64,000 nt of DNA, from contig JASCQW010000190.1 of the NCBI GenBank assembly GCA_030264375.1, forward strand, positions 61,227,369-61,291,368, in the 5' to 3' direction. Source of the DNA: Carcharhinus longimanus (lineage: Eukaryota). Below the pieces are notes generated by a model. It was not told the DNA's origin. It ran no database searches and worked only from the letters and a program-made list of their open reading frames with translations. The translations under genes and the position numbers were made by a program. This document shows positions 18,507 through 63,523 of this stretch, piece by piece (the first letter of the stretch is position 1; the number at the start of each line of letters is the position of its first letter).

Positions 18507-18561
18507 ATGTCTGGGCTCAATGTTGGCATTTTAATGCGGATCATAGCCATCTTTTGTACAG
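18507..18561 (+). CDS. Gene A coding exon 1: signal peptide
   Basis: MSGLNVGILMRIIAIFCT plus a phase-1 donor ACAG|GTT, in phase with the V exon after a 109-nt intron. Gene B's leader also ends ACAG|GTT. Confidence 0.7.
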
Positions 18562-18670
18562 GTTGTTTTATTTATTCCTGTCTTGTTTAATGCCCATGTC
18601 TATTTGTTATCTTGTGAACTGTACTGCTACTGTGTGTCTTTCATACAATCATTATTCTGTTTTATAATAG

Positions 18671-18991
18671 CTGGCATTCGCGCTAATTTCCAAGTCTCTC
18701 AAGCTCCTGAAAACACGAACGCTGTCTTGGGCACAAACGTCACCCTCTATTGCACGTTCCCTATTTTTCAAAATGTATTAAATGTGGAAGTTTACTGGTG
18801 GAAACTGGGTGAAATCGGATTTCTGCACAGAAGTCCAGATAACAGGAAGATATTTCTCCGCTTTAAGCAAGGGGGTGCTTCATTTCAGCTCCTGAATATC
18901 AGTGTCCGCGATGCTGGTGTGTATTACTGCGGTGTCAAAACCGTGGAAAACAGGACTGCAAATGGAACCGGCTCAACGATCAAAGTATCTG
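18671..18991 (+). CDS. Gene A coding exon 2: VJ-type Ig V-set domain
   Basis: ataatag|CT to TCTG|GTAGGT, 321 nt, phase 1-1. FQVSQAP...VTLYC...VYWWK...DAGVYYC...NGTGSTIKVS has the canonical B-strand Cys, C-strand Trp, DxGxYxC and a G-strand GxG. Confidence 0.93.
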
Positions 18992-20067
18992 GTAGGTGAC
19001 ATTCTGGCACGAGAAAAAGGAAAGCTCATAGATAATGTGGTGTTGCCAAAATTTCTTAAATTCAAATTGTTTATATATTGGAACAGACATATCCATATCT
19101 ATGTATTGTTTGTTTTCAGGCAGCAGTAACGTGGTTCAGTTAATCGAACGTCGTCGTACCAAGATATATACAGTCGTTGTTCTATGTGTACAGTAGAAAA
19201 TTGCCATACCTATTTAACATGATTTATTGGTTCTTACATCAGCACACCTAGATTTCATTTAAAGTGCCTCGGAAACTGATCGAACAATGCCCCTACTTTG
19301 GGGTTAACATGAATGAGCTGCACTATCCGGATAAAAGCCATATCACGATTTCTTATAAATGCATTGTTCCCTCAATAAATATTTGAACCGTCTAACAAAG
19401 GTGTGAACCAAACGCGAGCCAAACATTTGGTAATGAGCTTGTAAGATTAATCGCTACTGAGAAGTCTGCACAAAATTATTTTTTACAACTCTATGGAAAT
19501 CTTTAAGTTAGGAATGCTTAGAGTGGATTTTCACAGTCCTTCTATGTTATGAAATAATACCTTGCCTAAACTCAATTATGCAAGGAACTCAATTAACTAT
19601 AACCAATATGTGACGAGAGCCTAAATTCATTCAACTATAGCCTATGGCCCGGGATAGATATTGTTTACACTATAGTTATGTTCCCATAGTACTATATATT
19701 ATGAATCAACAATCTTTGATCATTGCCTATTTCAATTTGCTCAACAAGACCCTTTTTGAAAAGTCTTACCGAAAAAGAGAGAAACATGCAACAGACAATG
19801 GAGACATTGGATCAATTATGTTTGCACAGCTTCTTTGTAAAGTGCAATTATTAGTCCTAATTCCCAATGCAGTTTCCCAATAACCCTCGAATCTATGTTC
19901 AAACACTAACAAATATGTTGTTAACTGATTTCCATGCAAGGAATACAAATTTGTTGCAGTTACTTAACGCTCATGGAGATCACATTGGATAAAGAAAATG
20001 TAAGTTATGCAATCAAGAGAAAACTAACCCACATTATTATTCTTTGTTTTGTTTCTACTCTTTGCAG

Positions 20068-20376
20068 TTCCACCAACCCCGTTGAAGATTTTTCCCAAAG
20101 TACGTGAAGTAGACTCTTCTTTCCTTGATCTTCTATGCAAAACCAGTGAGTTTTACCCAAATGTGCTCAATCTCAGTTGGTACGAAGATGGAATTGAGAT
20201 CAGGAACAGCACAGTGACAACGAAGTCATTGAACATAAATGGACTTTATGAAGTTTCAAGTACATTAAAGAGGACGCAACCTGTCAGAAGCACAACTGTT
20301 TACACCTGTCAGGTTTCTCACGTCACACTCCCTGTCCCAGCTAAAGTGGAATTTACTCTTCTGAATCCCAGGCAAG
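20068..20376 (+). CDS. Gene A coding exon 3: Ig C1-set domain
   Basis: tttgcag|TT to CAAG|GTAAGG, 309 nt. LLCKTSEFYPNVLNLSWYEDG...NGLYEVSSTL...YTCQVSHVTL carries the C1 signatures C-x4-FYP, W, NGxY and YxCxVxH. Confidence 0.93.
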
Positions 20377-22649
20377 GTAAGGACCGGCATCCTTAACAAC
20401 TCACTGAACTGGAGATACACTACTGTGCATTCACATTGTAACTTAAGATTGGTGGGGCACACACTAGCTTAAAATACGTTTCAAACATATAGCGTAGATT
20501 TGGAATCATGTAATAACTCCAACGTAAGTGAATGCAAATTCCCCCAATTCGGCAACGTTTTATTGTTACTGGTTGATTCGCCAAGGAGCTTAAATACATT
20601 ACTCTAAACACGTTTATAAAATTATTCTTTATAATTGAGTGTTTCAGAAATTGCAGCTGCAGTCTCAAGACAGAAATTGTACGCAACTTAATAAAATAGG
20701 TGTTTCCAAAAAAAAAGAGGATCTGGTGAATTATCTGGGATTCTCAATCGTTTAATGGCAAAAATGCGAAACCGAAGTGATCATTACAGTTGGATGATGT
20801 TACCTCCTTAGTTTCTTATGTAGTGTGTTTTGTTTGTATTTTATACCATTTTACTTTCGAATTAATCGGAGTTATCTGCAAACAACTCCATTATCTTGAA
20901 GATTTGCTCACATCAACTAACCGGAGGCCTCTGTTACTATTGCAACTATCGTATTTTTCTTTGGACCTTTCTCTAAAATCAAATTGAAGCGTCAAAACTT
21001 GAGTGAATTATCAGCTGTGGACAATATTTTATAATGTATGATCCCCAAAACATGGAAAATTAAGAAATTTGAATAGCCATGGGTATAACGGTCCATTAAT
21101 TAATAAAATGGTAATGGACTCACTCTACTAATTTCAGTTCCGAACTTTATAATCACTTCTTCACTGCGTTCCCTCGAATGCAATCGACATATAATTAAGT
21201 AACAAACCCAAACATACTTCAGACTTTTCAATATTAAGACTTCCATGGATGCATAAAATAATCATGTGGCCGTCAAAATAAAAGCATCAGTTTCCTTCCT
21301 AGTTCTTTCTTGCAAATGGACACAAATTAGTTTGATTGTCAACATTTACTAGCGTGGATTTTTCTTTTGTTGCTTCTCCATCATTTTGAGCAATGTCATG
21401 GTTAAACATGTTCCCATATTATGGTCCACCTGCCCACTTTAGTACCCAGACATTAAATTGATTGATTCCATAGCGACTAATCTGCAACTACTTCCCCGAC
21501 CCCCCACCCCCGCTCCCCCACCATCAAAAAAAACCAAAAATCCGCCTGGTGCTAAAAAAGCTTGAAAACTTACACTTGCTCACTGAATATAAGCTATTGA
21601 TTTATTTTATGAACAACACAGGCGTACAAATCGACATCTGTGGCAACCTAAAGAGTAGAGCGGTCTTATTGAAATAGATTGTTTGCAAATGTATTAAAGC
21701 TACCACTTTCTCTGCGTTTTTCGACAACTCAATGAACTGGAGACACCTTAGGAAAACAATGCTCTAAGTCATTTGTTCCATGAGGCTTTCCCTGTGTAAC
21801 ACACTATTCAACCTCCGCAATCGAATTGTCAGGAACCCTTTCTTTCACTTTCATAACGATACTTCGTTACTGTGAAGCTAATTGAAAATTTGTTCCACAT
21901 TTTCATCATTCTTCCTTTATCGCAGAACACTGTTATGTTTGCCAATTTCCAATGCACGAGAGCCACTTCTCGAAGATAAATTTCCTTCAAATATAATGAT
22001 CTTCTTTTGAACGTATGCAGGCACAAGTATAACACAAAGCCACTTCTCGGAGTTAAATTTTCTTCAAGTGTAATGGTCTTGTTTTGAACATATCCACGCG
22101 CAAGTAAAACAACAAATCTTGTCATATGATCATCACTCTTCTCCATTAACTCACATAAATAAGGCTCTGACGTGAATTTAATTTATTACCCGATGAGCAA
22201 TCGAGCAAAGTCTGCTTCGAAAATCGCATCACAACATATTGTTCTGGAACTGTTTACTGAATGCATTTCATGAACTCGGTCTGAAATCTATATTTCCCGA
22301 TCAGGTTTTCTGAACTAATTCATAAATAAAAATCGCCCAAGAACATTATCCTTGTTATAACGGCTTTTAAATGTGCGTTATTTATCGCGCGAACCATTAC
22401 ATTTGAGGTGAGCCGGGTTTGAAAATACTTCTAACAGTGTGTTCTGACGCTTGTTTATCTCTCGAACTTGTAACCATTCATATCGCTATTATAAATAAAC
22501 TTTCATTGCCCGGAATAACGAACATTACTTCTTTAAAAACAAAATCTATTACAGAAATATTTAGTCTCCAAGTGTTCCGCTTTCAGTTAGCGCTGCTAGA
22601 TGAAACAATTATTCTTTTATTTTTAGTATCACTAGTCGGTTTACATTAA

Positions 22650-23330
22650 CACTGTAATGAAGTTACTGCGAAAATCCCCTAGTCATCACACTCCGGCTCC
22701 TGCTGGGGAACACTGAGGGAGAATTTAGCATGGCACTTAACAGACACGTCTTTCGGACTGTGGGAGGAAACTGGAGCACCCGAAATAAATCCGCACAGAC
22801 ACGGGGACAACATGCAATAACAGTTCAAAGTTGGGAATTAAACCCGGGTCCCAGGTGCTGTGAGGCAGCAGCCCTAACCACGATGCCACCGCACCACACC
22901 GAACTGGCCATTACGTTATCTATCACTTCGAAACATTTGCTGATTCATCGGCGTTTCCTGACATGGAAGCTGTCGCCATTAATTGAGCGACATTCAGAAT
23001 CCTCCAGAAACACTACAGTGCAAAAAGGCCATTCGGCCCACGCAGTCCACACCGGTGCTTTGACCAATTATCTCACCCAAGCTCTCATCACTGCACCATC
23101 CATGTAATCTTCACAGTTTTCTGGGGTAAGCTATCCAATACCTAAAAATTCATCTCACCTGCATACCTTCGGACTGTGGGAGGAAACAGCAGCAACCGAC
23201 GGAAACCCATGGAGATTTGCGGAGAATGTGTAAACGCCACACAGTCACCCAAGATCGAAATTGAACCCAGATCCCTCCAGCAGTTCGCAGCTGTGCTAAC
23301 GATTGTACCATTGTGCCACTGTGTCACACG
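22650..23330 (-). mobile_element. Two tRNA-derived SINE copies in a gene A intron
   Basis: Reverse-strand SINE hallmarks ggactgtgggaggaaac...gaacccgggtccc...gtgaggcagcag occur twice. Confidence 0.75.
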
Positions 23331-23421
23331 GCTTTATCTGTTCTACTTCAGTCATAATATAGATAGATAGAACATTACTTTCTTAATGTGATTTCTGTCA
23401 TTATTTTCCGTTGTCAATCAG

Positions 23422-23532
23422 GTGCTGCATTCCCGTTCAACAATCAAGTTATTTATATCGGTACTGCAGTTGCATTCGTATTTCTACTGATGGTCGCCAT
23501 CACCGGAAGCTACTGTCACCAAAATAAAAAAG
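23422..23532 (+). CDS. Gene A coding exon 4: transmembrane segment
   Basis: caatcag|GT to AAAG|GTAAAA, 111 nt. GAAFPFNNQVIYIGTAVAFVFLLMVAITGSYCHQNKK is hydrophobic, has no charged TM residue and ends in a basic stop-transfer. Confidence 0.85.
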
Positions 23533-23869
23533 GTAAAAGAGGTTTTTATTCCAAAGTAACCTCAAGATCGTCAAATGTATGAAATTGTATAATTTGAGTA
23601 AAAGCTAAAAATCCTATGACAGCCGATTTGTAAAATGCATTCACGTTCATTCGTTAAGTCTAGTGCCTCGGGGAATTCGTAAAGTATCCTCTATGTTTTG
23701 CTCAGTGGTAACTTAATTTAATTATATTTGCTTCACTTTGAGGAGCAGTTTAAACAAAATAGTTAACTGGAACAGTAGAATTCAGGCACTATGAGGCAGT
23801 TATTGTTCTTTTCGTCTGAGTCCTAAACTGCGTCTGCAGTTTTGATGCCATTATAGAAGCACCAAACGG

Positions 23870-24548
23870 GAGGTACGGTAGCACAGTGGTTAGCACCGCT
23901 GTTTCACAGCGCCAGGGACCTGGGTGCGATTCCTCGTTTCTGTCGCTATCTGTGTGAAGTTTGCGCGTACTCCTGGTGTCTGCATTGAGTTTTCACTAGG
24001 TGCTCTGGTTGCCTCCCATGCTCTGGAAGGTGAGTTGGTTAGGCGCATTGACCGAACAGGCGCCGGACTGTGATGACTAGGGGAATTTTGCAGTAACTTC
24101 ATTGCAGCGTTAATGTCAGCCTTACGTGTGACTAATGAACGTAGTTTACATTGTCATTTAAATAATATTTGACATATAATTGAAAAAAACGCCGCTGGTC
24201 CCACTGTTTTAGTTGTTTAAAATCATAGAATCCGACGGTGCTGAAAGAGGCCCTTCCACCCATCGAGTCTGCACCCAACACAATCCCACCCAGCCCCTAT
24301 CGCCATATCCCCACTAATCCATCCAACCTACACATCCCAGGACACGAAGGGACAATTTCTTAGCATGGCCAATCAACCTAACCCGCACATCTTTGGACTG
24401 CGGGAGGAAACCAGAGTGCCCAGAGGAAATCCACGCAGACATGAGGAGAATGTGCAAACTCCACACAGAGAGTGACCCGAGCCAGGAATTGAACTCAGGA
24501 CCCTGGAGTTGTGAAGCAGCGGTGCTAACAACTGTGCTACCGTGCCGC
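23870..24548. mobile_element. Two tRNA-derived SINEs in opposite orientation (23870-24150 +, 24225-24548 -)
   Basis: 5' ends ggtagcacagtggttagcac (tRNA A-box-like) and the reverse complement gtgctaacaactgtgctaccgtgccgc. Confidence 0.8.
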
Positions 24549-24702
24549 TCCGAATTGGAGTTTATTGGAGTAGGATTGCATTTCAAATAATATTTTGATA
24601 TAACTGCCCACGTTTTTATTGGAATCAACCAGATTGTCCTTCTGTAGAATTTTGTTGATCAATTGAAATTCATGGCGGAATAATAATTTAATTCATTATT
24701 AG

Positions 24703-24746
24703 GAGTGTGCCGATATGTGGATACTTCAGAACTTCGTGAACAGCAG
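24703..24746 (+). CDS. Gene A coding exon 5: 44-nt juxtamembrane cytoplasmic exon
   Basis: ttattag|GA to CAG|GTAATT encodes (G)VCRYVDTSELREQQ, phase 1 to 0. Same length, phase and GAGTG start as gene B exon 60754-60797. Confidence 0.8.
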
Positions 24747-24904
24747 GTAATTTCATATTATTGTTGCTCATGTATGTTAAATAAATTAAGAAATGATACG
24801 GCATTGAATCATTGCAATTAATCTCCACGTTGATCAACTGAATTTTACATTTCTTTTTCTACTCACAAACGTTCACAAATACATGTAATCCTTGTTGACA
24901 AAAA

Positions 24905-26700
24905 GTCTGCACAGTGGCACATTGGTTAGCTCTGCTGCTTCAGCGCCAAGGCCTCGGATTTCATTCTTGGTTTGTGTAACTCTGTGCGCAGAGTCTGCCA
25001 ATTCCCCTCGCGTCTGAGTGGGTTTCCTCCGGGTAGTCCAATTTCCTCCCGCAGTCCAAAGGACGTGCTGGTTCGGTGCATTGGCAATGCTAAATTCTCC
25101 TTCAGTATATCCGAACAGGCACCGTTCTTGTGGCAACTGGGGAAAATTCACAGTAACTTCATTGCAGTGTTAATGTAAGACNNNNNNNNNNNNNNNNNNN
25201 NNNNNNNNNNNNNNNNNNNNNNNNNNNNNNNNNNNNNNNNNNNNNNNNNNNNNNNNNNNNNNNNNNNNNNNNNNNNNNNNNGTTGTGAACTAACTAAAAT
25301 GAATAAACTGAGGAAACTGTAGTGTTCTGAAGAAATACATCTCTAGCTCCAACGATAATGTGTGTGCTGTATTTTTGTGAAGTGTATGCGTAGATTATTA
25401 ACATTCGAAAACAGTTATAGGCAGCTGTGCAGTTTGTTCTGTTGAAGATTTTGCGAATATCAATGCATGAATGGATGCTCGGAATGCTCCATATCAGATT
25501 GCAGGCCAGAAACTGCACTGCCCCAGCTCAATATAAAGAAAGTCTTCAGAAGTGATGGAAACCACAAGTCAGTCAGTTTCCTCAACAATGGAAGTGAGAT
25601 GTCCTGTAAATGAAACAGAATATATCAATATTCCGGTCCGTATGGTCACAAAATGTCAAAATTCTACATCAACGTTTCAGCTTTCCATCTAGTTTTCATA
25701 TAATTTGGAAACCAGTTTAAAAACGTATTTTATCAGCTCATCTGCTAATAGGCAGAACAGAGGATGAACTGATGTTTAAATTGCGTTGGGTTCGAAGAGC
25801 TCCGCTATTTTCGAATCAAATAATCCCTACAGTGTAGAAAGAGGTCATTTTTCTAATCAAGCCTCGTACGACCATAATCCCACCCAGACGTTGTCCCTCT
25901 AATCTCACATAATTATCCCCCTAATCTCCCTAATACTGAGGGACAACTTACCATGGCCAATCCAGATAAGCTGCGCATCTCGGAATGTGCAAGGAAACCG
26001 GAACAATCGGAAGAAACTGACATAGACAACGGAAAAACGTGGAAACTCCACATAGGCAGTCACACGCGTCTAGTTATAAACAGGAGAGTTAAACCGCTAG
26101 AGGAATGGACAGCGTTTGCCAAAGCACGATGATAAAAATAGCATGAACGTGCGTCAAAAGTCTATTCTTTACGCTGTTCCATTCAGTGCGGTGCTTCTAC
26201 CAAATTTTATATCAGCTATCTTATTCTTTCCTTTCGGAAAATTATTCAATTGTATAATTATGCATAAAGTGAACCACAAATTCGAAAATGTTCAAATTAA
26301 CAGGATCAAACTTCTGGATTATGGCAGATAATAGCTGACCAAAGTAATTGATACTTTTCCAGAAATTGTCGAATGAGTAGAAAGAGGAATGCGGTGGCTG
26401 GAAATTATATGGATTATCAAAACGCTTCTGATGCAAAAGGCATTAGCGCCAATTGAATTAAAGTTACATTTAATTACATAATTCCTACAGTGTAGAAGGA
26501 GGCATTCCGCCCATCAGGTCTACACGAAAATCCGAACAGAAGGCATTGTACAGCCGTTCTCATTTACTACGACTAAACCATCGAACCTACACATCTTGAG
26601 ACACTCAGGGACAATTTCACATGACCAATCTACATAACACACATGATAGAACCGTTAGCAGGAAACTGTAACACCTATGGAAACTCATACAGACATGGGG
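24905..26700. mobile_element. Cluster of partial tRNA-derived SINEs (about 24905-25180 +, 25820-26065 -, 26480-26700 -)
   Basis: Repeated matches to the SINE body and tail seen in the better-preserved copies. Confidence 0.65.
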
Positions 26701-26704
26701 ACAA

Positions 26705-28562
26705 TGTATTTGATTTGATTTCATTTGTTATTGTCATATGTATAAGTAGTGAAAAATATTATTCCTCGCGCACTAAGCAGACAGAGCATAGCATTCATAG
26801 AGAAGAAAACGAGAAAGTGCAGAATGCAGAGTTACAGTCATTGTTAGGGTGTAAAGAAAGATCAATTTAATGCAAGGGAGGACAATTTAAAATTTTGATG
26901 GCAGCAAGGAAGAAGCTGTTCTTGAGTCGGTTAGTGCGTGACCTCAGGCTTTTGTATCTTTTCCCGATGGAAGGAGGAAGAGAGGAAGTCCGGGGTGCAT
27001 GGTGCTCTTTATTATACTGGCTGCTTTGCCAAGCCGGCAGAACGTGTAGACAGAGTCAATGGATGGGAGGCAGGTGTGCTTGTTGGATTGGATTACATTC
27101 ACAACGTTTTGTATTTTCTTGTGGCCTTGGGCAGAGCAGGAGCGAGAACAAGCTGTGGAAGTTGGTGACAGCTGTAGCTGACATGCCAAGTTTGCTTAGT
27201 CTTCCTTAGCCTTCTGAGAAAATAAAGGCGTTGCTGGGATTTTTTCACTTTTGCGTCGGGACGGGAAGAACAGGACAGGTTGTTATTGATGTGGACACCT
27301 GAAAATTTGAAGCTGCTGGCCCTTTCTACTTCGTCCACATTGATGTGGACAGCGACGTATTCTCCTCTACGCTTTCTGAAGTTGATGACGATCTGTTTTG
27401 TTCTGTTGACATTGAGGGAAAGATTATTGTCGTGGCACCAGTTCACCAGATTCTCCATCTCATTCCTGTACTCTGTCTTGTCATTGTTTGAGATCTGAGC
27501 CACACTGGTGGTGTCGTCAGCAACTTCAAATTGAGTTGGAGGGGAATTTGGCTACACCGTCATAGGTAAACAAGGGGCATACTAGGGGGCTGAGGACACA
27601 ACCTTGTGGGGGAGGGGGAGGGCACTGGTGTTGAGGGTGATCGTGGAGGAGGTGTTGTTGCCTACCCTTAATGATTGTGGCCGTTCCCCTTCCTTTTGGG
27701 GAGCTGTCAGGATCCTTGTCCAGGACCCAACCACAGAGAGAAGAGCGGAGACCCAGACCACGGAGTTTGAAGATGAGTTTCATAGGAATAATGGTGTTGA
27801 CAGCTGAGCTGTCGTCAAGAAATAGGAGCCTAACATAGGTCTTTGCTGTCTAGGCATTGCAGTTTTGAGTGAAGTGCCGGGGGATAGCGTCTGCTATGGA
27901 CCTGTTGTAGCAGTAGGCAAACTGTAGTGGATCCAGGCATCCAGGAAGCTGGAATTGATTCGTGCTAAGACTAGGGTTTGAAACACTTCATAATGATGGA
28001 TGCCAGAATCATTGGATGATTGTCATTAAGGAACACTGCTTGGCTTTTCATTAGTTTCAGGATGATGGTCGTTTTCGTGAAGCAGATAGGGACCTAAGAT
28101 CATTGAAAAGAGAGTTTGAACATGTCTGCGTATATCCCTGCCAGCTGATCACGCAGAATATAAGTGCTCGTCAGGGTACCCCATCGGACCAGTTGCTTTC
28201 TGTGAGTTGACCTTCGAGAAAGCTGATCTGACAGCGGCAATGGTGACAGCTTCATCCAAGCATTCAAGGGTGGAGGGCACGGTCTCACTGATGTCTTGCT
28301 CAAGCCGGGCATAGAATGCATTGAGCTCCTCGGAGGTGGAGGTGGCGTTGGTGGTGCGTTCGAGCCCATGATTTTACATGCCTTCATCATATAGCCTGTT
28401 ATGTCTTGCAGACCTTGCCATAGTCGGAGGAGGCCTGTGTGGCTGGCCTGGGACTCTAGCTTGGTCTGGTACTGTCTTTTGGCATCATTGATGGATCTCC
28501 TTTGATCGTTTCTGGCTTTCTTGTATAGATCAGAGTTGCCTGACTTGAATGCATCAGACCTA
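26705..28562 (-). mobile_element. Rex1/Babar-type LINE, about 1.9 kb, frameshifted
   Basis: Minus-strand AFKSGNSDLYKKAR...RLWQGLQDITGY, PQGCVLSPL, ISNNDKTEYRNEMENLVNWCHDNNLSLNV and QQRLYFLRRLRK; tail tttgatttgattt. Confidence 0.85.
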
Positions 28563-28834
28563 AAGTAAGCAGCCACACAAATGATCTGCCGAGGCTGGAA
28601 TCGAGCACGTCTCCCAGGCACTGTGAGGCAGCATTAAATCAAATTATTTACATGACATGCATATTTGAACAATGGTAGTCGACAGATATTAACAATAATA
28701 GGCAAACACTCCGATTACCAGGATATAACTGGTTTGTTCTCATAGAGCTACGTTGGGACTTTGAAGATTCAAAGGATTTATTCAGGACTTCATGGAATAA
28801 AACACCACACATTGAAATTTCTTGATGACACAAA

Positions 28835-29790
28835 TATAGGACAGTACAAAGTCTCACAACATCAGGTTAAAGTCCAGCATGTTTATGTGGTATCACAAAC
28901 TTTTGGAATGCTGTTCTCTTTCACCAGTGGGGAGGAGTGTTCATAAAGACGGCATATATAGACAGTGTCTCGATTGCAAGATATTGATTGGAATGCAAGT
29001 CTTTACAGGTATAGAAAATGGAAATAGGGAGAGTAATAATTACAGGTAGGCGAGGTGTGAATTGTCTGAAGCCAGGGCAGTTAGTAGGATTTTGCAAGCT
29101 CAGGCCAAATGGTGGGGGTTACATGAAGTGTGACACGAATGCAAGATCCATGCTGAGGATCTTCTCCTCACGTGTGTGGAACTTGGCTATCAGTTTCTGG
29201 CTTGGGGGGTTATGCATTGTCGTGTGCCTCGAGTGTCACAGGGATGAACGGACACCATGCGACAATCACCAGACAGGAATGCTCCCTTCCTGTCGGAGAA
29301 CACTTCAGCAGCCAAAGACATTCAGTTTTCATCTTCAGTTAAACGTTCTCCAAGGCAGACTTCAAGACACATGATAAAGCAGAATCGCCGAACAGAAACT
29401 GATACCCAAGTTCATACGCATGAGGTCGGCTTCAACCATGCTCTTGGGGAGATGTCACACTCCCTGTCACCCCACCATTTGGCCTGGGCGTGCATAATCT
29501 TACTAACTGGCCTGTCTTGAGACAATTCACATCTCTTTAACCTGTTATTAGTCCTCTCTCCACTCGCATTGTTTCTTCCTGCAAAGAATTGATTGCCTGC
29601 AAAGACTTGTATTCCAACCATTCTCTTACAATTGAGTCTCTGTCTATATATGCCGTCTTTGTTAACCCACCTCTGTCACACACCTGATGAAGTAGAAGTG
29701 TTCCGAAAGCCCGTAATGCCAAATAAACCTGTGTTGTGAGACTTCTTACTGTATCCAGCTTAGTCCAAAGCCAGCATCTCCACTTCGAAA
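28835..29790. mobile_element. Penelope-like element remnant with inverted terminal segments
   Basis: EHFSSQRH...EQKLIPKFIR resembles a GIY-YIG C-terminus. 28840-29200 is a diverged reverse complement of about 29390-29790. Confidence 0.65.
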
Positions 29791-30204
29791 ACATAAAAGT
29801 TATTGTAAATCTGTTAAAGGAAAGAAGGGATGTGCTATTTCATCCGTTTGGAGAGATATTCTGGGGACACGGCGACATTTTCTGAAAAACATAGAACTAC
29901 AAATTTCAAGAGTGTAATTAGGAATAAATTCTAGAGGGAGGGAAAAATTCTAACCTTTGTGGGATTGCTTACAAGCATGCTAATTAGTTTTGTTTGAATT
30001 GTTCCCCGAAATAATGTATTAATAGAAACGTGCCACGTGTGTAAATTCAAGGTCGACAGATTCGTGAGGCACTAAATGATTCGCCCCTTTCCTAATGGTC
30101 CCATGTATATTATTTTCACTCTTATTGAACGAACATTGATGCAGTTTTGCTGGTAGATAAATAAAACAATGGGCGAACAACATTCTCCATCGTTGACTTC
30201 ACAG

Positions 30205-30378
30205 ATGGAACAAGTCACCACTGATAACAAGCTCACCTATGCTTCTCTTGATCTGATTGGCTTCGAGAAAACCCGGAAATCGAAATATTATGCGGCAAGT
30301 ACAGAGAATGCTCAGCTTAGTGCCACGATGCCAAGCAGAGCAACAGAGGTTATCTACACCGAAACCAGAGTCTCATAA
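30205..30378 (+). CDS. Gene A terminal exon: ITIM-bearing cytoplasmic tail
   Basis: cttcacag|ATG, phase 0, encodes MEQVTTDNKLTYASLDLIGFEKTRKSKYYAASTENAQLSATMPSRATEVIYTETRVS*. LTYASL fits the ITIM consensus, and the exon aligns with the gene B terminal exon. Confidence 0.85.
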   Translation: MEQVTTDNKLTYASLDLIGFEKTRKSKYYAASTENAQLSATMPSRATEVIYTETRVS

Positions 30379-43400: not shown

Positions 43401-44255
43401 TCAAAACAAATGTAAATCAGGAATTAATCTATGAACATTGATTAGGGCGTCCAAATGGAGCTGCCAGCTGTCAAAAGTCTGCACTTCCGCAGATCAATTT
43501 GCCGACCGAAATACCGTTGGAACTCCCAAAATCGAGCGCTACAGAGCCCACATTCTCCCACAGCAAGTCTCATTATGGATTTTTCAAGCTGATTTGTTGA
43601 CGTGTTGTACTCGCGCAATTCACAACTCTTTAGAGGACAATCCATTTCAAATAATCTACTATAACATAAAATTCCAGCTGAAAAGCCGGAGGATACTGAG
43701 CGAACAACAATACTTACAATGCATGGCCAGAGACATTGTCTATCCTTAATTCATTGTCACAAATAAATTTTGAATGATATGTTTGCCCATTGCTTTTGTC
43801 CTTATCTCTCTTATCTGGACCCTTGCACTTTTCTATGCAAAACATGCTCTCCTCATTTCCTGTTCTACTCAATATTCCCTGTAGGGAACCGCCCCAGCCT
43901 ACTTAAGGCGATTTGTTTTTGTGTAGCGAGTAGTCTATGATCAATGGTTTTGCGGCCCCCTTACCCTCCTGTACATTTATCACATATTACTTTGTTATAA
44001 AACTTCCTTTTGTCTGTATAACGGAATTTGGTCCTGTGTTACTGCCATTTGAATCATGTTCGGGTCAGTAAATTATGCAACGGGCCAAACTCGCCCGCTC
44101 CCAAGTCGTGACTTCTTTCCAGTGAATAACCATGGGAAATTCAACTTTGCTGCCTTTTTTGGATGCAGAAATACATATTCTCGATCATAGCATACATTTA
44201 TTATGTCAAACAGCCTAATAATAGAAAGCTACAACTTGAAAACGCGCGTTACACT

Positions 44256-44581
44256 TGTTTTGCGCTGGTTATGCAACGGTCTCCGGGGCTATGTATGGAG
44301 TCCTGACTCATACCGTGTCATTGTTCCCTATTTCCTACATTAGGGTTCCTAAGCATGTTGTTGTGCTATTTGAAGTGACGTGCGGCCGTTACAGGTTTTG
44401 TCTCAATTTTTTACAATTTCAGGTACATCATGAAAAGAAGTTGAAAGGAAACCGTAGCGGAAAAGAAAACAATGGGCCTAAAGTCGTCATTATCTTTTAT
44501 CCGTTGATTTCCTTGAGTAATCCTCAGAGAAATTTGGAGAATTTCTATGCATAAAATGCAAAAAATCAGAAATTCACAACA
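44256..44581 (+). repeat. Copy 1 of a ~330-bp segment duplicated upstream of gene B; cut off by the N gap
   Basis: Colinear with 52108-52434 apart from scattered substitutions. Confidence 0.9.
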
Positions 44582-47345: not shown

Positions 47346-47825
47346 TCAGTCGCTAGTGGCTTGTATATGTGGGTTGCATCCCCCCTCCCCTGAAAATTTC
47401 CTTCCATCTCCTGCGACATTGTCACACCAGAGTGGTCGGCCAGGGTACTCTGTGTGATTGATTTTTTTTTGGCAGGCAGGAGCGTGTTGATGACTCTTTA
47501 AGCACTATTATGATGATGCCATGGTGAAAATTAGTCTGACTCCTATCTGAGCTCTGCATTCGTGCTGGCTTCTAGGCTTATGCCTGTGTAATGGGTAAGG
47601 GATCTGAAATCCCCGTACAGGGCCCTGGGGTGGGTGGGGTAGTGGACAGTTTGGAATCACTCGTGGGGCCTGGGGAAATAATGGCTTCCTTTTCTCAGTA
47701 GCACAGCATTGAGGGGCCTCCCCAAATGACATTGACATGAAGCATCCCTCCCGCGATCATCAATGGAAAAGGATTTCTGTTGGAGAAAAATCTGAGGCAA
47801 ACTTGTTACTGGCGGCACAGTGAAA

Positions 47826-48160
47826 AGGGACAGCACAGTGGCAAAGTGGTTAGCACTGCTAACTCACAGCGCCAAGGACATGGGTTCGATTCCCAACTTG
47901 GGTCCCTGTCTGTGTGGAGTTTGCACATTCTCTGCATGTTTGCGTGGGTTTCCTCTGGCTGTTCCGGTTTCCCCGCACAGTCCAAAGATGTGCAGATTAG
48001 ATTGATTTGACATGCTAAATTAACCTTGAGTGTCCTGGGATATGAATGGTGAGAGCGAATAGTTGGATAACAAGGCGATGATAGGGCTGGGTGGGATTGT
48101 GGTTGGTGCAGACCTAAGGGGCCGAATGGCCTCCTTCATCACTGCACGGTTTCTATGAAA
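47826..48160 (+). mobile_element. tRNA-derived SINE
   Basis: gtggttagcactgct...catgggttcgattcc (A/B-box-like) through gggccgaatggcctcct...ctatga. Confidence 0.8.
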
Positions 48161-51392: not shown

Positions 51393-52107
51393 ACAGGGTT
51401 GTGCAGCGCAATTTGGAATTACTGATATTTTTGGAAGCAGTGTGCCTACAGAGGTGCCTGAGAGCAGATCTAAAATCGAATCTGAAACACTTCAAATCCA
51501 CGTCTGCCCAGCAATTAGAATCAAAATGGTAAAATAGGGCTTCCAGAGTGCGGATTGGAGGTGTCACCTTGTGGTGACATGCTGGACAAAGGTAACATGC
51601 AATTCTGATTTACAATCGGGGCATGGGATGGGTTTATTCAGGTAATGGCAACAGACCGCGGGAGATTTATTAAGAAAATGATGGAGAATGGATATGAGCC
51701 GGGCATATCGACTTGAACAAAAGGGATGGTGGAAATTGCCGACGAATAACAAGTCAGAGATGGTGATTGTTATATTAGGGGCCCAAATGAGAATTCACCT
51801 TCAGGAAAAAGGATATTTACAAGCAGATTGCAGCAGAAGATGTAGCACAGCTAATAAAACAAAATACACCGTTTGGAGGAATAATAAACCAGCAATTGTG
51901 ACGCCACCCCCAGGAGAATCAAATGAAAATCATATAGATATTGAGAGTTTCTTAGAGGGAGAGCACCAGAAAATGACAGTGTTTCTCTTTCCTACATTAC
52001 CGTAATTCCCACCGTACCAGTTGCCCCACATCCAACTTTAATGACGACGCTCGCCCTGGAAGAGGGAGTGCAACATGTTGCTACCATGAAGTGCTGCTGA
52101 CAACAGC

Positions 52108-52434
52108 TGTTTTGCGTTGGTTACGCAATGGTCTCCGAGGCTATGTATGGAGTCCTGACTCATAACGTGTCAAATCGTTCACTATTTCCTACATTAGGGT
52201 TCCTAAACATGTTGTTGTGCTATTTGAAGTGACGTGCGGCCATTACAGGTTTTGTCTCAATTTTTACAATTTCAGGTACACCGTGAAAAGAAGTTGAAAG
52301 GAAACCGTAGCGGAAAAGAAAACAATGGGCCTGAAGTCGTCATTGTCTTTTATCCGTTCATTTTCTTGAGTAATCCTCAGAGAAATTTGGAGAATTTCTA
52401 CGCATACAATACAAAAAATCAGAAATTCACAACA
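52108..52434 (+). repeat. Copy 2 of the duplicated segment, ending about 270 bp upstream of the gene B leader ATG
   Basis: Colinear with 44256-44581. Confidence 0.9.
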
Positions 52435-52704: not shown

Positions 52705-52753
52705 ATGTTGTCAAGTGGGATGTGCTTCTCTGTCCTGGCGCTCGTTTTCACAG
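52705..52753 (+). CDS. Gene B coding exon 1: signal peptide
   Basis: MLSSGMCFSVLALVFT plus a phase-1 donor ACAG|GTT (weak), then a 166-nt intron to the V exon. Confidence 0.72.
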
Positions 52754-52919: not shown

Positions 52920-53240
52920 GCTCTGGTCAATCGGTGGTGAAAGTAACTCAGCTACCTGCGAGCGTGAGCAAAAACAAGGATACAAATGTGTCCTTCCATT
53001 GCTCGCTTCCTTTCTTTCAAAACGTTCCGGCTGTGAATATACAATGGTGGAAACACGGTGACAACCAATATATACGTACAGAAGAAAATGGCCGAAAAGT
53101 AACTGGATTAAAGACAATATTCAGCGGTTTCCTTCAGATCAAGAATGTGACCTTGCAAGACGCAGGGGTATACTATTGCACTGTCACTCATCGGGGCAGT
53201 ATTGCTGGTAATGGGACGGGCTCCAAATTATCTGTCCGAG
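52920..53240 (+). CDS. Gene B coding exon 2: VJ-type Ig V-set domain
   Basis: ctcattag|GC to CGAG|GTAGGT, 321 nt as in gene A. VKVTQLP...VSFHC...IQWWK...DAGVYYCTV...GNGTGSKLSVR. Confidence 0.93.
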
Positions 53241-53895
53241 GTAGGTTTGGATGAAATGAGATTGAGAGATCCATAATGAATAATTCGCGTGTCAAAGCAT
53301 GTCTCGATTGCGCGTCGAATATTTTATATTGGTTCCTAGCAGAAGGCTTTGTTACCGTTTATTAGGATTTGGATGTCTCCAGCTAGGAGAAAATGTATTT
53401 GTTCATCTCAATCCCCTTGTGCTCGGATTTGATAAAGTTAATTAAGATTAAAACAAATTGCACTGGGTCTTCGTTCTCATATAGGCCAGAACAAGCAACG
53501 ATGACAGCAGAGCCGCCGGTTCAACTACATACGCAGTTTCTGATTGTTTCATATGTATATATTCATATTGCAATAATTATGACAATTGCTTCCTCTAATT
53601 GAAATTACAGTTTTCTATCCAGCAGGGAAAAAAAAACACATGGACTCTGTGTGCAGCTCATTTACTACTGTCATTCATTTGCTGATAATTTGAATTTCGC
53701 GTAGCTATTGCCATTGCTTTCATACATCAATTTCTTATGATAAAAGCCCTGCGCAGTGGAGATCTATGCACAGCACAAACCAACGCGATATATTCTGCAA
53801 AGCAACACGATGTTGTCGAAAAAAAGGCCGAAACAGCAGAGGGACTGTTAAGCTTTTTCGATGACGAAGCATTTTCCCTTTCTTTTATTTCATAG

Positions 53896-54207
53896 TTCCA
53901 CCAACTCCGCTGAAAATTAATTCTCAGTATCCTGAAAATGACGCATCCGCGCTTCCTGCTGTTCTATGCTCACCGTCTCCATTTTACCCGAAGAATATCA
54001 ATTTCACTTGGTACAAGGATGGCATCAAAGCTACAGGAATGATAAAGACAATAATTGAATCCAAGACTGATGGACTATATGAAGCTTCTAGCCGTTTGCA
54101 AGAGACGCAGTCTATCCAGTTAGGAACTATGTACACCTGTCTGGTGACTCACAGCACTCTTCACGTTTCAGCGTCCGTCAGTCACATTATCACCAATCGC
54201 AATACAG
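53896..54207 (+). CDS. Gene B coding exon 3: Ig C1-set domain (donor site mutated; the frame reads on to TAA at 54231-54233)
   Basis: ttcatag|TT opens VPPTPLKI...VLCSPSPFYPKNINFTWYKDG...DGLYEASSRL...YTCLVTHSTL with no internal stop. The expected phase-1 donor reads ACAG|TTAAG. Confidence 0.88.
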
Positions 54208-55380
54208 TTAAGCAGTCTGATAGAGGAATATAACTTCAGAGAACGTGCAATCTCGCATATCCGTGTAGATTCTTTGGAGAAAAAATGTTTCATTTGGTCC
54301 CACGTCACGGATTTGCTTTAAATTAGTTTGCTTCAAACGTATCTTCAAATGCCTTTTTTGAAAAATTATAAGTTCATTGTTCCTAAAACTTCCTGCATCT
54401 TCCTAGCAATCCGTGGGAAAGCGTTCTTCTCAAATTCCATTTATTTTAGACAAACGAAAATCAACTTGACTGCGGCTTATCTATGCAATTGAAAAAGTAT
54501 ACGTGCATTTGTTCTCCTTCGAAATCAGGTGTAGCACGATTCATTCTTTCAAATTGCATTTACGCTCCCCTGCTGTAATGGTAAAAATCATAGTGTCTCA
54601 TATCTCTCAAAGTAACTAAAGCGGTTCAGCCCTTCCAACGTCCTGGGCATTTTTCTCCTATACTTCCTGAGGTGAACTGGCGATTATTGTGTTTAGTTGT
54701 TCAGCAAAGAATTGAGTAATCTCTTAAGTTTGGCATCATATTTTACGTTTTCTGATTCAATAAAGCCACTATTCTTAAAATTCAATTAATTCCAGAATCA
54801 TCCCTAAGAAACTTACGGTTTTGTCCTGCCACGCCCAAAGACGTTTGCATGTGCAGCTTTGCATTTTATTGCTTTTGGCTGAAAATAATACCTTTTTGGC
54901 GATTGGTGCACTCCATCACTTTCACCCCAAAAATCTCATTGTCATTATTATTCGTATTACATTGTACTTATATTTCGTCTGCTCATGTTGGCAATCTTGT
55001 TGTACTATTGCCAAGTTTCCTACTGCTGTGCACGCTACATGCCACCATTAATACAATTTTTATGACCCACTAACTTCGAAATTGCACTCGATATTTCCTA
55101 GTCCGTGTCATTGAGTCTTTCATATCCAGCACTGGGTCTCACAGTTATGGCGGCTGAAGACTGGGGTCTTGACATAAAGATGGCCTTTATAAGTGGTTGC
55201 TCAGTTTGCAGTTACCAATAGCCCACACACAAAAAAAATCTCACACACGCACCCTCTCCCCCTCCTTACCCCCACACCACCCAGAGAAAACATTAAATCT
55301 GGTCTTGATGTAGATAAATTGCAATGTAAATTTGCCAACAATATCTCCCCTCCAAGCACCGTTTTCCTGTAGTGTCATGC

Positions 55381-55735
55381 TTCCTCCATCACCACTGAAA
55401 ATTAGCTCTCTGCAAACTGTCAATGATTCATATCTCTATATTGCTATTATTTTCGAGGAACCTTCCTGCCCCCCACCCACCACATGCCACTCGCCACCCC
55501 AACTCTGCCCACTCCACAGCCCCGCCAATCATCGAAGAATGCCAGGTACCATTTGAATAAGAATGTCTCCAAAATTACAATAGATACAAATAACATTGCT
55601 CAACTAATAACCAATGGGTCATAAGGAACTTGGCTTTGCAAAGTTCCCTGCCTATCAATTTTGTACTTGTTTATGGCTATCTGCAAACTTATATGATTCT
55701 CCATATTTCAGCCACGGTCCTCACATTGTCGCGTC
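55381..55735 (+). pseudogene. Decayed second C1 exon of gene B
   Basis: Three colinear blocks match the functional C1: LPPSPLKISS, LNKNVSKITIDTNNIAQLITNGS* and LQSSLPINFVLVYGYLQTYMILHISATV. The acceptor AG, both Cys and the Trp are lost, and a C-rich insert lies at about 55460-55545. Confidence 0.7.
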
Positions 55736-58504
55736 TATGGATGAAAACAAAATCTTGCGGGTTCTAGAAATATGAAACGAAAAGCAGCAAATGCAGTATA
55801 AATTCACTGGGCCTGGCAGGATTAGTAGAAAGACGCACAGTTAGCGTCTCGGGTCTAAATAACCCCTCTACAGAATAGTTTTGTAGAATGCTGAGTTTAT
55901 CCAGCATTTTCCATTTTGATGCAATTTATCCTTACATCCGTAATGCACCTGAATGAATTGTAGAAGCATTACGCATGCTTGATCCGTTTAATCATTGTAC
56001 TTTCATGAAAGAAGAGTCTAATTTATTTTCTCAGAGAGCTTGTTCCTATTCATTCTGCAAATGTAAACTCTTAAGACATACACTGACCTGTCTTTCCTGG
56101 AAATGCATACATCAACTGCTATTATCATTCTTTCAGGTAGATTTTGCCCACGGTCCACGACATCATAGTTTTTCTCATTTACTTTGTATTTCTTAACCAT
56201 TTCTATTTTGCTTTATGACATTGGTTTACCTATTCACTATCCTTGAGGGTTATTGCACCTCGGTCCCGCCATTGGGTGTCTGTGCCTGTTATTAAATTTA
56301 ATAGCCTCCTGATTTGATTTGGTCTAATTGCAAAAACGGCGCTTCTCCAAACTCACCAAATCACTGCGGACACACATTTCCCTCAACCTTTACTCTGCAA
56401 CTCCGTCTCCTCTCATCCCTGCTAAAAGCTAATGCCGATAATGCTACATATCGGCGCAACAGAACAGCAACGCGTGATTTGTCAGCGCTTAACATGATTT
56501 CTTTTTTTCTATTTATCATCATCTACAGTCTAGAAATCTCTTAGGCATCCCAAAGCAGCTTAACATCTTGCCGACAATTGAAAATTCTCCCTCCGTTTCA
56601 GATGTGTGTTACCATTCCTGTTTTGATGTGCGTTATCCTTCAGTCTGCTGCTATCCCTACATTTGAGAACAAGTTAGCATTCCCAAAATTTAATCAGTAA
56701 AATCCTTATATCAAGTAAAACACTCATCATCATGCTGATGCCTGGGGAATTCCAGTGCACAACTCTCTAGTATGTGATATAAAAACAATGGATCTTCACA
56801 AATTTCGTGAAATCCTGTCCGATGTCAACGGAGAAGGCCGTTCTCCAAGCCTCGCCTGCCCCTCGGAATCGGGGCGGGCGAGCAGGTAAAATTCCGGTGA
56901 TCGGAAACTGGAATGAACTGCCTAGGAATTTGATAGAAGGCGGAAAGCATATAATCATTTACAATTTTTTTTCGATGAACACTTGAATCATCATAATACT
57001 CAAAGATATTGGACACGTGCCTGCAAATTGTATTAGCACGAATTTGGTGATGCTTATTGTCGGAGCAGACTCAGTGGACCGAAGTGCATTTTCTGCACTG
57101 TACAAGTCTATAATTTTGTGGCCTGCGTTCGAATCTTATCACAGCAGACGTTCACATTTAAATTAAATAAAACATCACAAATTAAAAATCCTAATGATTA
57201 CCATAAAACCATTCTCCATTGTAATGCAATCCCACCGGGTCCAATCCTTTAAGGAAGGAAACCTGCCATGCATTGCTGGTGTGGCCTTAACACGATTACG
57301 GAGGCAAAACATTGTCGGTGACTGTGACATGGCCATAGGCTAATGGTCTTTACGGATGGGCAATAAATATCATTCCAGTTAGTGATACCCACGTTACATG
57401 AATTAATAATAAAATGCCTTTTAAAATTTCAGTCATCTTCAGGCAGTTTTCACTAATTATTCCTGTTGTCGACAATATAATTCGACCAGCTTCATCAGAG
57501 ACAATTTCTGCTTTAACATATCTGAATACTTCAGCTCTGATAATGGCTCCTCCTAACTCGAAACGTTGGCTCTCCAAAGTTATTATCAGACCTGCTGAAA
57601 TTTTCTGGCATTTTCTGTTTCTGTTTCAGACTCCAACATTCACAGTTTTTCAGTTTTATCTGAACATTTCGCCCCTTCTTAACCAATGTTATTCTAGTGG
57701 CATTTAGCTGACAAATGACCCTGTTATCTTTTCCATTACCATATTTCGTTTTACTGACTCATAAATTATCCGACTATTACCATGCATTCTCGCCAGTGTT
57801 GCGATCCACCGCCGTCATTAATTTGTTACTTACTACCCTTGATATTCCAGCAGTTATTTTGTCCTTACGCTTTTGTAACTGTGGTATGGTATTTCCCATC
57901 CCAGTTTTTGTGAAGTTTGTATTGCACAGCAGACGTGACTGAATTCTTTCGACCGTAAATGAAAATTAATTTTTCCAGTCTAAGCTCACCGTACATGGTC
58001 CACGGTCTACTGTTTTGCTTACACCATGCTAGAAATACAAATAGGCTTAAATTTGGGAACTGTTATTAGCCTTTTTTTAAACGAAAACTTCTTCACTCTA
58101 CGTTAGCGGAAGGAAAACGTTCCGCCCATTGATTCTTGTCAATTTGATATTTCACACAAAGTAAATATTTGAAGTCATATACTTCAGCCTTGTTTCACCC
58201 AGAAGCACAGGGACAACTAAAATGCCAATAAGGCCAAGGCACCCTAGCGATAAATGTATTTTTACACAAATTGTACGAAATCGTCAAATAATTGTCAGTC
58301 GATGTCGAGGTTATGCATCCATTCAATTGATCCGGTTGATGCAGTTTGAATGGTTCTGATTCCAACAGGAAGGGATCTGTTAGAGCAGTAATGCAATATG
58401 TGGATGATGCGTTGACTTGGAGGCCACGGTCACAAGTCAAACACTTCCATCAACATATATAGTAGGGTTTTTGACCACAACTTCACTCGACAGATAGCTA
58501 TCAT

Positions 58505-58840
58505 TACAGAATAACTACAGTGCAGAAACAGGTCATTTGGCCCATCGAATCTGCACCGACCACAATCCCACCCAGGCCCGATCACCATATCCCTAAATCT
58601 TTACCCGTTAACCCCTCTAACCTCCGCATCTCAGGGCACGAAGTGACGATTTTAGCATGGTCAATCAACCTAAACCGCACATCTTTGGACTGTGGGAGAA
58701 AACCGGAGCATCCGGAGAAAACCCACGCAGGCACGAGGAGAATGTGCAAACTCCACACAGACAGTGACCTAAGCCGGGAACCCAACCCAGGTCACTGGCG
58801 CTGCTAAGCAGCAGTGCTAACCACTGTGCTACCGTGCTGT
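58505..58840 (-). mobile_element. tRNA-derived SINE
   Basis: Ends gtgctaaccactgtgctaccgtgctg and resembles the 24225-24548 copy. Confidence 0.85.
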
Positions 58841-59858
58841 CCTGGTGCTATCGCTGAACTGTTGTTCAGATTTTCTGTGACAGAATCATGCAATTTCGAT
58901 ATAGGGATTAGGTATCAGAGTGTGATCAGTTGCGTTTGCAATTAAGTCGGAAATAAGAGTTTCAACATTAATCACTTTGCGCGCATGAAATATGTTCCGG
59001 TATGTGCCTGCGTGTTTATGTGTGTGAATCGGTGGTGAGAGCACCGTATTTAATACAGGTGCGCGTTTGTTTCCGTCCTCTGCCGATGGGCTTCAGTCCT
59101 CTGCCAATGGGCTTTGTTACTTGACCATGATTTGTGTTCCGGCGCGTTGTCACAAACGTGTTGCAACAGACTGATTCCAGGCTATTTTCTCTCAATATTC
59201 CGGAAATAATCCTCATGACTTCCGTTAATATTATATTTACGACGTTTGAAATCTCCTGAGTCTGGTTGCGTAGCAGTGCGCACTGTCAGGTGGAATAGGA
59301 TGTGCGAAGTCGTGTAATCTTCGCACCACAGAGCACCCAGCAGACTTGATTTTGAGATTCGCATTCGCCTTAATATTTCCATTAGGTTTCCGAGGTGCTG
59401 CCAGTAGTTCAAGAATCATACAAAGGCATCTTGATCGCGCAGACATGACAAGCTGCAGCATCCCCGAAATGATTAATCCACACACTGTCTTTCTTCATAA
59501 TATTTATGGGTGGCCCTTCGCCCTCAAAGTCGTGGTCATTTGGACATACCGACGATTGGATACTGGTTTTCCAGCCTAGACTACCCTAGATTATCCAAAA
59601 AATACCCAGCAGGGATGTATTTCCTCTGAAAGCTTATTTCAGATAAAATGAACTTCAGCCAAAGGGGTGCCTATACTATCGCTTCAGCATGTAATCTGAG
59701 CAACTCGATAGCCAAGGGAAGATCATCATGCCGTGTTTTTTAGCTGATCTTCACCAAACACGAAGTGAGCGAAATGCACGGTCATTTATGGCATATCTTC
59801 GCTGTTAAACTGGACAGAGGAGTGCCTCAGGTTTATATGTTTGATTTGAACTCTGCAG

Positions 59859-59969
59859 GTGGTACCATCACCCATTACTTGCTAATCTCTGCAGCTTCTT
59901 GTGGCGGATTTGTTTCATTGGTGCTGTGCATTATAACTCTGAAGCGGCGTCTGTCAAAGAAAAATAACG
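59859..59969 (+). CDS. Gene B transmembrane exon
   Basis: ctctgcag|GT to AACG|GTAAGA, 111 nt as in gene A. GGTITHYLLISAASCGGFVSLVLCIITLKRRLSKKNN has no charged TM residue. Confidence 0.85.
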
Positions 59970-60753: not shown

Positions 60754-60797
60754 GAGTGCAAAAGAATGACAAAGGACTCAAATATCCTGATCAGGAG
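60754..60797 (+). CDS. Gene B 44-nt juxtamembrane exon
   Basis: tttccag|GA to GAG|GTACGT encodes (G)VQKNDKGLKYPDQE, phase 1 to 0. Confidence 0.82.
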
Positions 60798-62334: not shown

Positions 62335-62433
62335 GAAGCAACAGATGTGATGACGCCTTATGCTGCGCTAGATATGAATAATTTCCGGACGGCACCAAGA
62401 CTAAAGCAACAAGAAAGGACAGTTTATGCCCAG
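62335..62433 (+). CDS. Gene B extra cytoplasmic exon with a tyrosine-motif pair (can read through to a stop at 62530-62532)
   Basis: catgcag|GAA to CAG|GTAGAT, 99 nt, phase 0-0, encodes EATDVMTPYAALDMNNFRTAPRLKQQERTVYAQ. Confidence 0.78.
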
Positions 62434-63355: not shown

Positions 63356-63523
63356 ACTAAAACAATTCCACGGGAAAGTAAGGTGACCTACGCTGCTCTA
63401 GCGATGGCAGCTCCAAAGAAAGCAGATAAGGCTAATTATAAAGAGAAGAGTACAGTTTACGGTCAGATTCGCATGGAAAAGCAGAGAGCAGACGCTGGTT
63501 ACACGCAAGGAAAGGACGAGTAA
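63356..63523 (+). CDS. Gene B terminal exon: ITIM plus ITSM (absent from the supplied ORF track)
   Basis: ttatacag|ACT, phase 0, encodes TKTIPRESKVTYAALAMAAPKKADKANYKEKSTVYGQIRMEKQRADAGYTQGKDE*. VTYAAL is an ITIM and TVYGQI an ITSM. Confidence 0.85.
   Translation, partial: TKTIPRESKVTYAALAMAAPKKADKANYKEKSTVYGQIRMEKQRADAGYTQGKDE

Follow-up and report, generated by a model that had tools for sequence, protein, structure and literature searches.

The window, which is the entire 64,000-nucleotide stretch of Carcharhinus longimanus DNA that was analysed, contains two tandem immunoglobulin superfamily genes, gene A and gene B (Table 1), whose named relatives all come from cartilaginous fish. Identity with these relatives reached 69% in the V and C1 domains. 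Gene B was nearest to P0061 and P0001, while the nearest relative of gene A was P0044 from Mustelus.

The exon phases of gene B are mutually compatible. Apart from the C1 donor, all of its exons look intact. The C1 donor reads TT at 54208-54209 in the window and GT in all four of the related genome runs examined, and a GT one base before the TT is out of phase. Either an allele or an error in the assembly could account for the TT. If it is real, skipping of the C1 exon would yield an in-frame V-TM-ITIM receptor, joined phase 1 to phase 1. Over 53898-54206 the gene B C1 exon differs from these relatives at least 12 times, and at least seven of the differences are amino-acid changing.

Several other features of the window were recorded. 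A 330-nt segment occurs twice upstream of gene B, at 44251-44581 and 52103-52434, with 93% identity, and the first copy adjoins an assembly gap. The cluster is bordered at positions 3-200 by an exon resembling the first exon of a short-chain dehydrogenase (SDR), with an adh_short E value of 0.045, below the cut-off, which might provide a synteny anchor. The annotated tail of the catshark protein P0005 matches a repeat that is common in the window (22760, 24391, 24993, 37300 and 58683), so the P0005 model ends in a repeat.

Table 1. Coordinates of the two genes and of the lesions and borders of the decayed C1 copy
Feature	Position	Strand	Remarks
Gene A, tandem paralogue of gene B	18507..30375	+	leader from 18507; V ~18670-18990; one C1 20068-20376
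Gene A, remaining exons	TM ~23421-23534; tail ~24702-24749 and ~30202-30375	+	
Gene B leader exon	52705..52753	+	phase 1, GT donor
Gene B V exon	52920..53240	+	joined J-like GxGT motif, phase 1-1; GNGTGS at exon end
Gene B C1 exon	53896..54207	+	Pfam C1-set E 1.1e-11
Old acceptor of the decayed copy	55371..55380	+	GC at 55379-55380 where gene B has AG
C-rich segment with net 59-nt insertion	55455..55534	+	exact placement ambiguous
Frame-breaking lesions	55618..55724	+	TAA 55622-55624; net 4-nt deletion near 55618-55629; 1-nt deletion near 55720
Probable start of an interspersed repeat	55740..55800	+	where the old 3' end/donor would lie; contig pile-up in relatives
Gene B transmembrane (TM) exon	59859..59969	+	uncharged, phase 1-1
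Gene B cytoplasmic exon 1	60754..60797	+	
Gene B cytoplasmic exon 2	62335..62433	+	TPYAAL, TVYAQ
Gene B last exon	63356..63523	+	VTYAAL, TVYGQI, stop

Homology and disablement of the intron segment

The segment from 55381 to 55735 on the forward (+) strand is a decayed copy, or pseudo-exon, of a gene B-type C1 exon, and is referred to below as the fossil. It starts 1.17 kb past the end of the gene B C1 exon, inside the 5.65-kb intron between the C1 and TM exons, consistent with the preliminary description, which had placed a fossil second C1 exon about 1.2 kb downstream of the first. The nhmmer match extended from 55366 to 55732 with an E value of 1.8e-9, and a blastn comparison of the gene B C1 exon with the window gave matches at 55381-55431 (72.5% over 51 nt, E 3.8e-4) and 55533-55730 (59% over 203 nt, E 1.4e-7). 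The similarity of the DNA to gene B begins about 17 nt upstream, at about 55363, within the old acceptor tract. The three peptide blocks that had been aligned with the gene B exon were found at their positions and in the same order, and the substitutions TGG to TTG (in the region of 55552-55554) and TAT to TAA (55622-55624) are both visible.

A single gapped local alignment covered the entire C1 exon with a score of 144.1. None of 1000 dinucleotide shuffles, which averaged 64.7 ± 7.0 with a maximum of 104, attained this value, and among 416 real 600-nt windows taken from both strands, higher scores were obtained only in the two that represent the gene A C1 exon, the best non-C1 window scoring 90.9. 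The tblastn comparison that had been proposed as a check also returned two matches, but with E values of 0.079 and 0.20 it was weak and not significant alone. The signal of the fossil therefore sits at the DNA level.

A score no better than shuffled controls and a match to a repeat family had both been named beforehand as grounds for rejecting homology. The first is contradicted by the alignment score. As to the second, a comparison of the 64-kb window with itself found no other copies of the fossil except the C1 exons, no tandem repeat was found within the fossil, and no Rfam match was present within 54200-59900. The possibility that the resemblance is fortuitous or due to a repeat element, for which the tblastn values could be cited, is negligible in view of the shuffles, the nhmmer E value, the lack of other copies in the window and the absence of any pile-up of contigs inside 55381-55735.

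The fossil is thoroughly disabled. The AG nearest to the old acceptor, at 55371-55372, lies 8 nt upstream and is out of frame, and no donor is present. When the first frame is read onward through the C-rich segment, a stop is encountered at 55554-55556. Both cysteines and the tryptophan of the immunoglobulin core have been replaced. Unrelated contigs of all four related runs begin or end at 55740-55796 and there is a rise in depth in the bin 55717-55787 in runs X2, X6 and X9, as would be expected of an interspersed repeat, although no second copy of it was found within the window. No such pile-up of unrelated contigs occurs within the fossil itself, unlike at 55740.

No remnant of a V, TM or tail exon was found beside the fossil by nhmmer, tblastn or profile searches, and the homology of the flanking intron was within the range of shuffles (100 against a maximum of 107, and 154.5 against a maximum of 191). 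A candidate fossil TM exon at 54904-55044, suggested by one tblastn match (E 0.025), was rejected because it scored -3.0 bits on the profile of activating TM segments and did not match the inhibitory profile. No fossil C1 exon was found in gene A. An nhmmer match of the gene A C1 exon at 47690-47852 (E 0.001) was also discarded; with a local score of 86 it does not stand out from the background, and it extends into a repeat.

Source, selective history and age of the fossil

When the fossil was compared with 133 C1 domains using a frameshift-aware aligner, the top nine all belonged to the gene B subgroup, with scores of 87.5-56.9. The best were P0002 from the horn shark (87.5), P0050, the second protein from Heptranchias (78.3), and gene B itself (76.5). 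The gene A C1 domain scored 40.0 and ranked 41st of the 133, and the four gene B-type proteins from rays fell outside the top 40. Nineteen SIRP D2 and D3 domains, from proteins named as coelacanth, bird and tenrec SIRPs, scored 22-36, compared with a shuffle null of 29.8 ± 4.5 (maximum 46).

At 264 aligned DNA sites, in a codon alignment that was built against gene B and so favours B over A, the fossil was identical to gene B at 152 and to gene A at 116, while genes A and B agreed at 153. Sites at which the fossil shared the base of only one of the two genes numbered 59 for B and 23 for A. A decaying copy that is as close to gene B as the intact paralogue gene A would have separated from gene B later than gene A did. 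The fossil would accordingly postdate the split between genes A and B, and by a wide margin any split from SIRP D2 or D3.

Maximum likelihood trees (one quick tree, together with LG+G4 trees of 32 rows and of 49) nested the fossil in the gene B clade, with an SH-aLRT value of 97 in the quick tree and support of 69/98 in a later one. The fossil formed a long branch (1.2) on 90 columns. The C1 domains of the family formed one clade (100/99), apart from SIRP D2 (99/99) and D3 (96/91). AU tests marginally rejected the grouping of the fossil with SIRP D3 (p 0.046) and with the second C1 domain of the skate (p 0.042). Groupings with gene B (p 0.18) and with the batoid (ray) gene B clade (p 0.23) were not rejected, nor were trees that excluded the fossil from the gene B clade (p 0.30) or from the family altogether (p 0.245). 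As judged from these comparisons, the placement of the fossil rests on similarity more than on the tree tests, whose power is low.

The differences between the fossil and gene B were distributed evenly over the three codon positions (0.46/0.40/0.42 at the 264 sites). Over 90 codons dS was 0.65 and dN 0.62, giving a dN/dS of 0.95 (95% interval 0.51-1.73), whereas the intact genes A and B gave 0.47 for C1 and 0.43 for V. Simple arithmetic predicts a dN/dS of about 0.74 if the fossil had been dead from the start and about 0.47 if it had been working throughout, and only 1.4% of the resamples fell below 0.47. These rates suggest that decay likely set in almost at once, selection being absent during most or all of the fossil's existence. 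A long functional period is disfavoured, and a short early spell of function would be compatible with the wide interval, which extends down to 0.51.

Four of 19 listed related genome runs, each from a different study, were compared over 53800-55900 and the fossil was at the same place in all four. Record 17 of run X7 covers 53800-55784 without a break and shows 74 substitutions and four gap letters, none of the gaps in the fossil, and the sole indel listed inside the fossil in the related runs was a 2-nt deletion in one X9 contig. The frame-breaking indels of the fossil are thus older than the splits from these genomes. The window differs from X7 by 3.7%. At a constant rate, the dS of the fossil (0.39-1.11) would make it roughly 10-30 times older than the split from the X7 run. 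The duplication may perhaps date from about the origin of the galeomorph gene B subgroup.

The reading that best accounts for these observations, with a probability of about 0.75, is that the C1-TM intron of gene B houses a broken C1 copy whose origin was a duplication inside the gene B subgroup and whose decay was unconstrained by selection for most, if not all, of the time since. Behind the original exon, a second C1 exon of phase 1 would have been placed either by a short tandem duplication or through unequal crossover with a neighbouring gene B-type paralogue; since no V, TM or tail remnant is present and the flanks no longer align, the two routes are indistinguishable. The duplicate would soon have been disabled, its splice signals being lost early, and would now be removed with the intron by splicing, adding nothing to the protein.

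P0002 and P0050 outscore gene B itself, and a sibling gene B-type paralogue, rather than the C1 exon of gene B, is a possible if doubtful source of the copy. Such an origin, by unequal crossover, would be compatible with the duplication just described. The horn shark has several gene B-type paralogues, and a paralogous contig, record 21 of run X7, differed from the first 35 nt of the fossil at five positions compared with nine, counted by hand, for gene B. Past the first 35 nt, however, the paralogue was no closer than gene B by hand comparison, a sister relationship between the fossil and gene B was not rejected by the AU test, and the C1 and TM of gene B both match the same catshark protein, P0061.

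Exon duplication of this type has precedents. Pseudo-exons generated by tandem duplication of symmetric phase-1 immunoglobulin domain exons are a known kind, and the fossil resembles them in its 1-1 phase, in the location of the copy in the next intron and in the loss of its splice sites. There is no categorical difference, although the fossil is notably old and yet still alignable. It is an ordinary pseudo-exon whose neutrality and datability would make it a useful marker in this slowly evolving genome. It provides evidence that the C1 exons of this cluster are duplicated and is uninformative about the ancestor of the SIRPs.

C1 number across the family

Among 64 relatives from cartilaginous fish, 55 were V-C1, three had C1 only and one had V only. 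The others were two V-V-C1 proteins, one of them a split-V artefact, two apparent fusions of neighbouring genes (P0014 and P0016) and a single V-C1-C1 protein, P0007, a predicted model from Amblyraja radiata. The two C1 domains of P0007, which differ at 3 of 102 residues, cluster with the single C1 domain of Leucoraja (100/100), so the second would be either a young, independent copy or an artefact of the model. Of 120 further matches, the 67 under 750 residues were classified, and 39 of the 67 were V-C1. Six of the 67 had tandem C1 domains, but these scored low on the family profile and fell outside the family clade. Tyrosine-motif or TM-plus-tail segments were duplicated in P0008, P0098 and P0109, and the number of tail exons in the family is therefore also variable.

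The preliminary description had regarded the fossil as a sign of an ancestral SIRP-like V-C1-C1 ectodomain and had proposed that the family varies its C1 number by exon duplication and loss. The second proposal holds in part: duplication occurred at this locus and probably also in Amblyraja, where it depends on the predicted model P0007. The first was not upheld. The fossil matches the gene B subgroup, SIRP D2 and D3 are at the level of shuffles, there is no sign of selection, and the recommended search for relatives with two intact C1 domains recovered adjacent copies, nearly identical, in only one of the 64.

Two versions of a two-C1 ancestor can be considered. In the first, a C1 duplication within the family gave rise to a working V-C1-C1 receptor that was long retained in the ancestor of shark gene B, with later loss of the second domain. 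The fossil is old, with its best matches in the horn shark and Heptranchias; the Amblyraja model belongs to the same subgroup, and the AU test did not reject a grouping with the batoid gene B clade. This history is nevertheless unlikely, given 1) a dN/dS near 1 in the fossil, 2) the near identity of the two Amblyraja domains and their grouping with the one domain of Leucoraja and 3) the single C1 domain in the gene B-type proteins of Heterodontus, Chiloscyllium, Hemiscyllium, Scyliorhinus, Mustelus, Heptranchias, Mobula, Hemitrygon and Leucoraja.

In the second version, the fossil is the counterpart of the second C1 domain (D3) of SIRP-alpha, inherited from a V-C1-C1 ancestor common to cartilaginous fish and bony vertebrates. 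The tail of the host gene is SIRP-alpha-like, the position and order of the exons fit, and the AU test rejected the grouping with D3 only marginally. This is very unlikely. The D3 and D2 domains align with the fossil no better than shuffles do, in its DNA the fossil lies no farther from gene B than gene A does, which should be impossible for a neutral exon dating from the root of jawed vertebrates, adjacent C1 domains are confined to one of the 64 relatives, and the V domains of the family score no higher on the SIRP V profile than an IgNAR-like V domain. The fossil is likely not a relic of the two-C1 layout of mammalian SIRP-alpha.

The host family and SIRP-alpha

The host family is of more consequence than the fossil, since its members are V-C1 receptors of the paired type, whose four-tyrosine tail resembles that of SIRP-alpha and whose V domain is not of the SIRP type. 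The V-C1-C1 arrangement is the usual SIRP layout, and four-tyrosine ITIM/ITSM tails recruit SHP-1/2. SIRP-alpha (SHPS-1) and the other SIRPs share with the shark family the order of a joined VJ-type V domain, a C1 domain and a TM segment. The spacing of the four tyrosine motifs is typically 23/14/23 in the shark family and 24/17/26 in bird SIRP-alpha. A profile built from 25 tails of the family gave 43-47 bits with the tails of three bird SIRP-alpha proteins (shuffle maximum 9.4) and 11.1 bits with a coelacanth tail (shuffle maximum 4.8), the controls being shuffles only. The best ESM Atlas matches for P0012 were SIRP-alpha clusters, at 0.97 and 0.96. From its four motifs, gene B is predicted to encode an inhibitory receptor which, like SIRP-alpha, would act by recruiting SH2 phosphatases.

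Seven of 91 family members combine a short tail with an arginine-bearing TM segment and are likely of the activating type. Clustered pairing of inhibitory and activating members is thus seen in the two tandem genes of the window together with these seven. The ITIM motifs of SIRP-alpha and the concept of paired receptors are treated in PMC5413580.

There are also clear differences. Gene B has one C1 domain and SIRP-alpha has two, although the V-C1-TM order of the host and the likeness of its tail to that of SIRP-alpha were upheld. The C1 domains of the shark family form a clade of their own, with no resolved link to SIRP D2 or D3. A SIRP-type V domain is absent; the V domain of gene B gave 22.3 bits on the SIRP V profile and falls in a separate clade, and the family as a whole gave about 22 bits, the same as an IgNAR-like V domain, compared with 66-106 for SIRP-like V domains. 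Nor is the V-C1-C1 layout strict among SIRP-like proteins. It is seen in P0147 and P0188-P0196, of which P0193 has no C1 domain, and the coelacanth proteins P0186 and P0187 have one.

The unsplit VJ exon followed by C1 is likewise found in UrIg/UrIg2 and in other non-rearranging VJ-C1 genes (NKp30, PRARP). A joined VJ domain with the GxG motif is also described for NKp30, CD8 and PRARP in PMC11599192. When the family profile was compared with the PDB, UrIg2 (9dmx) ranked first by summed score and SIRP-alpha (2wng) second. With the V-C1 unit alone, antibody light chains scored about 69 bits, SIRP-alpha 55.6 and UrIg2 46.7. UrIg2 differs in having a V plus three C domains, and UrIg-like C1 and V domains group apart from those of the shark family.

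In annotated genomes, V-C1-TM models of the host family have been named automatically as 'tyrosine-protein phosphatase non-receptor type substrate 1-like', 'Ig lambda-like' and 'tapasin-related-like'; these are predicted and the naming is inconsistent. A literature search found no paper on this receptor family or on the fossil, which does not in itself establish that none is in print, and the terms SIRP and ITIM were not found in a search of the main text of PMC12227049.

The family could, tentatively, represent the SIRPs of cartilaginous fish, in the form of a large cluster whose paired V-C1 receptors carry the four-tyrosine tail of SIRP-alpha. If this were true, SIRP-type signalling would already have existed at the root of jawed vertebrates, in receptors with one C1 domain, and doubling of C1 would be recurrent and derived, as in the fossil, the young Amblyraja copy and the D2 and D3 domains of bony vertebrates, the reverse of the polarity first proposed. 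According to PMC9652883 the origins of the SIRPs are still unknown, and the SIRP family is placed under Tetrapoda in PMC13262535. A cluster in cartilaginous fish with a SIRP-alpha-like tail makes the question of SIRP origin testable, by synteny and CD47 binding.

SIRP-like V domains were observed in P0105, P0123 and P0140. P0105 has six in tandem (best 79 bits on the SIRP V profile), joined to a domain that by eye resembles a serpin, and is probably a fused gene model.
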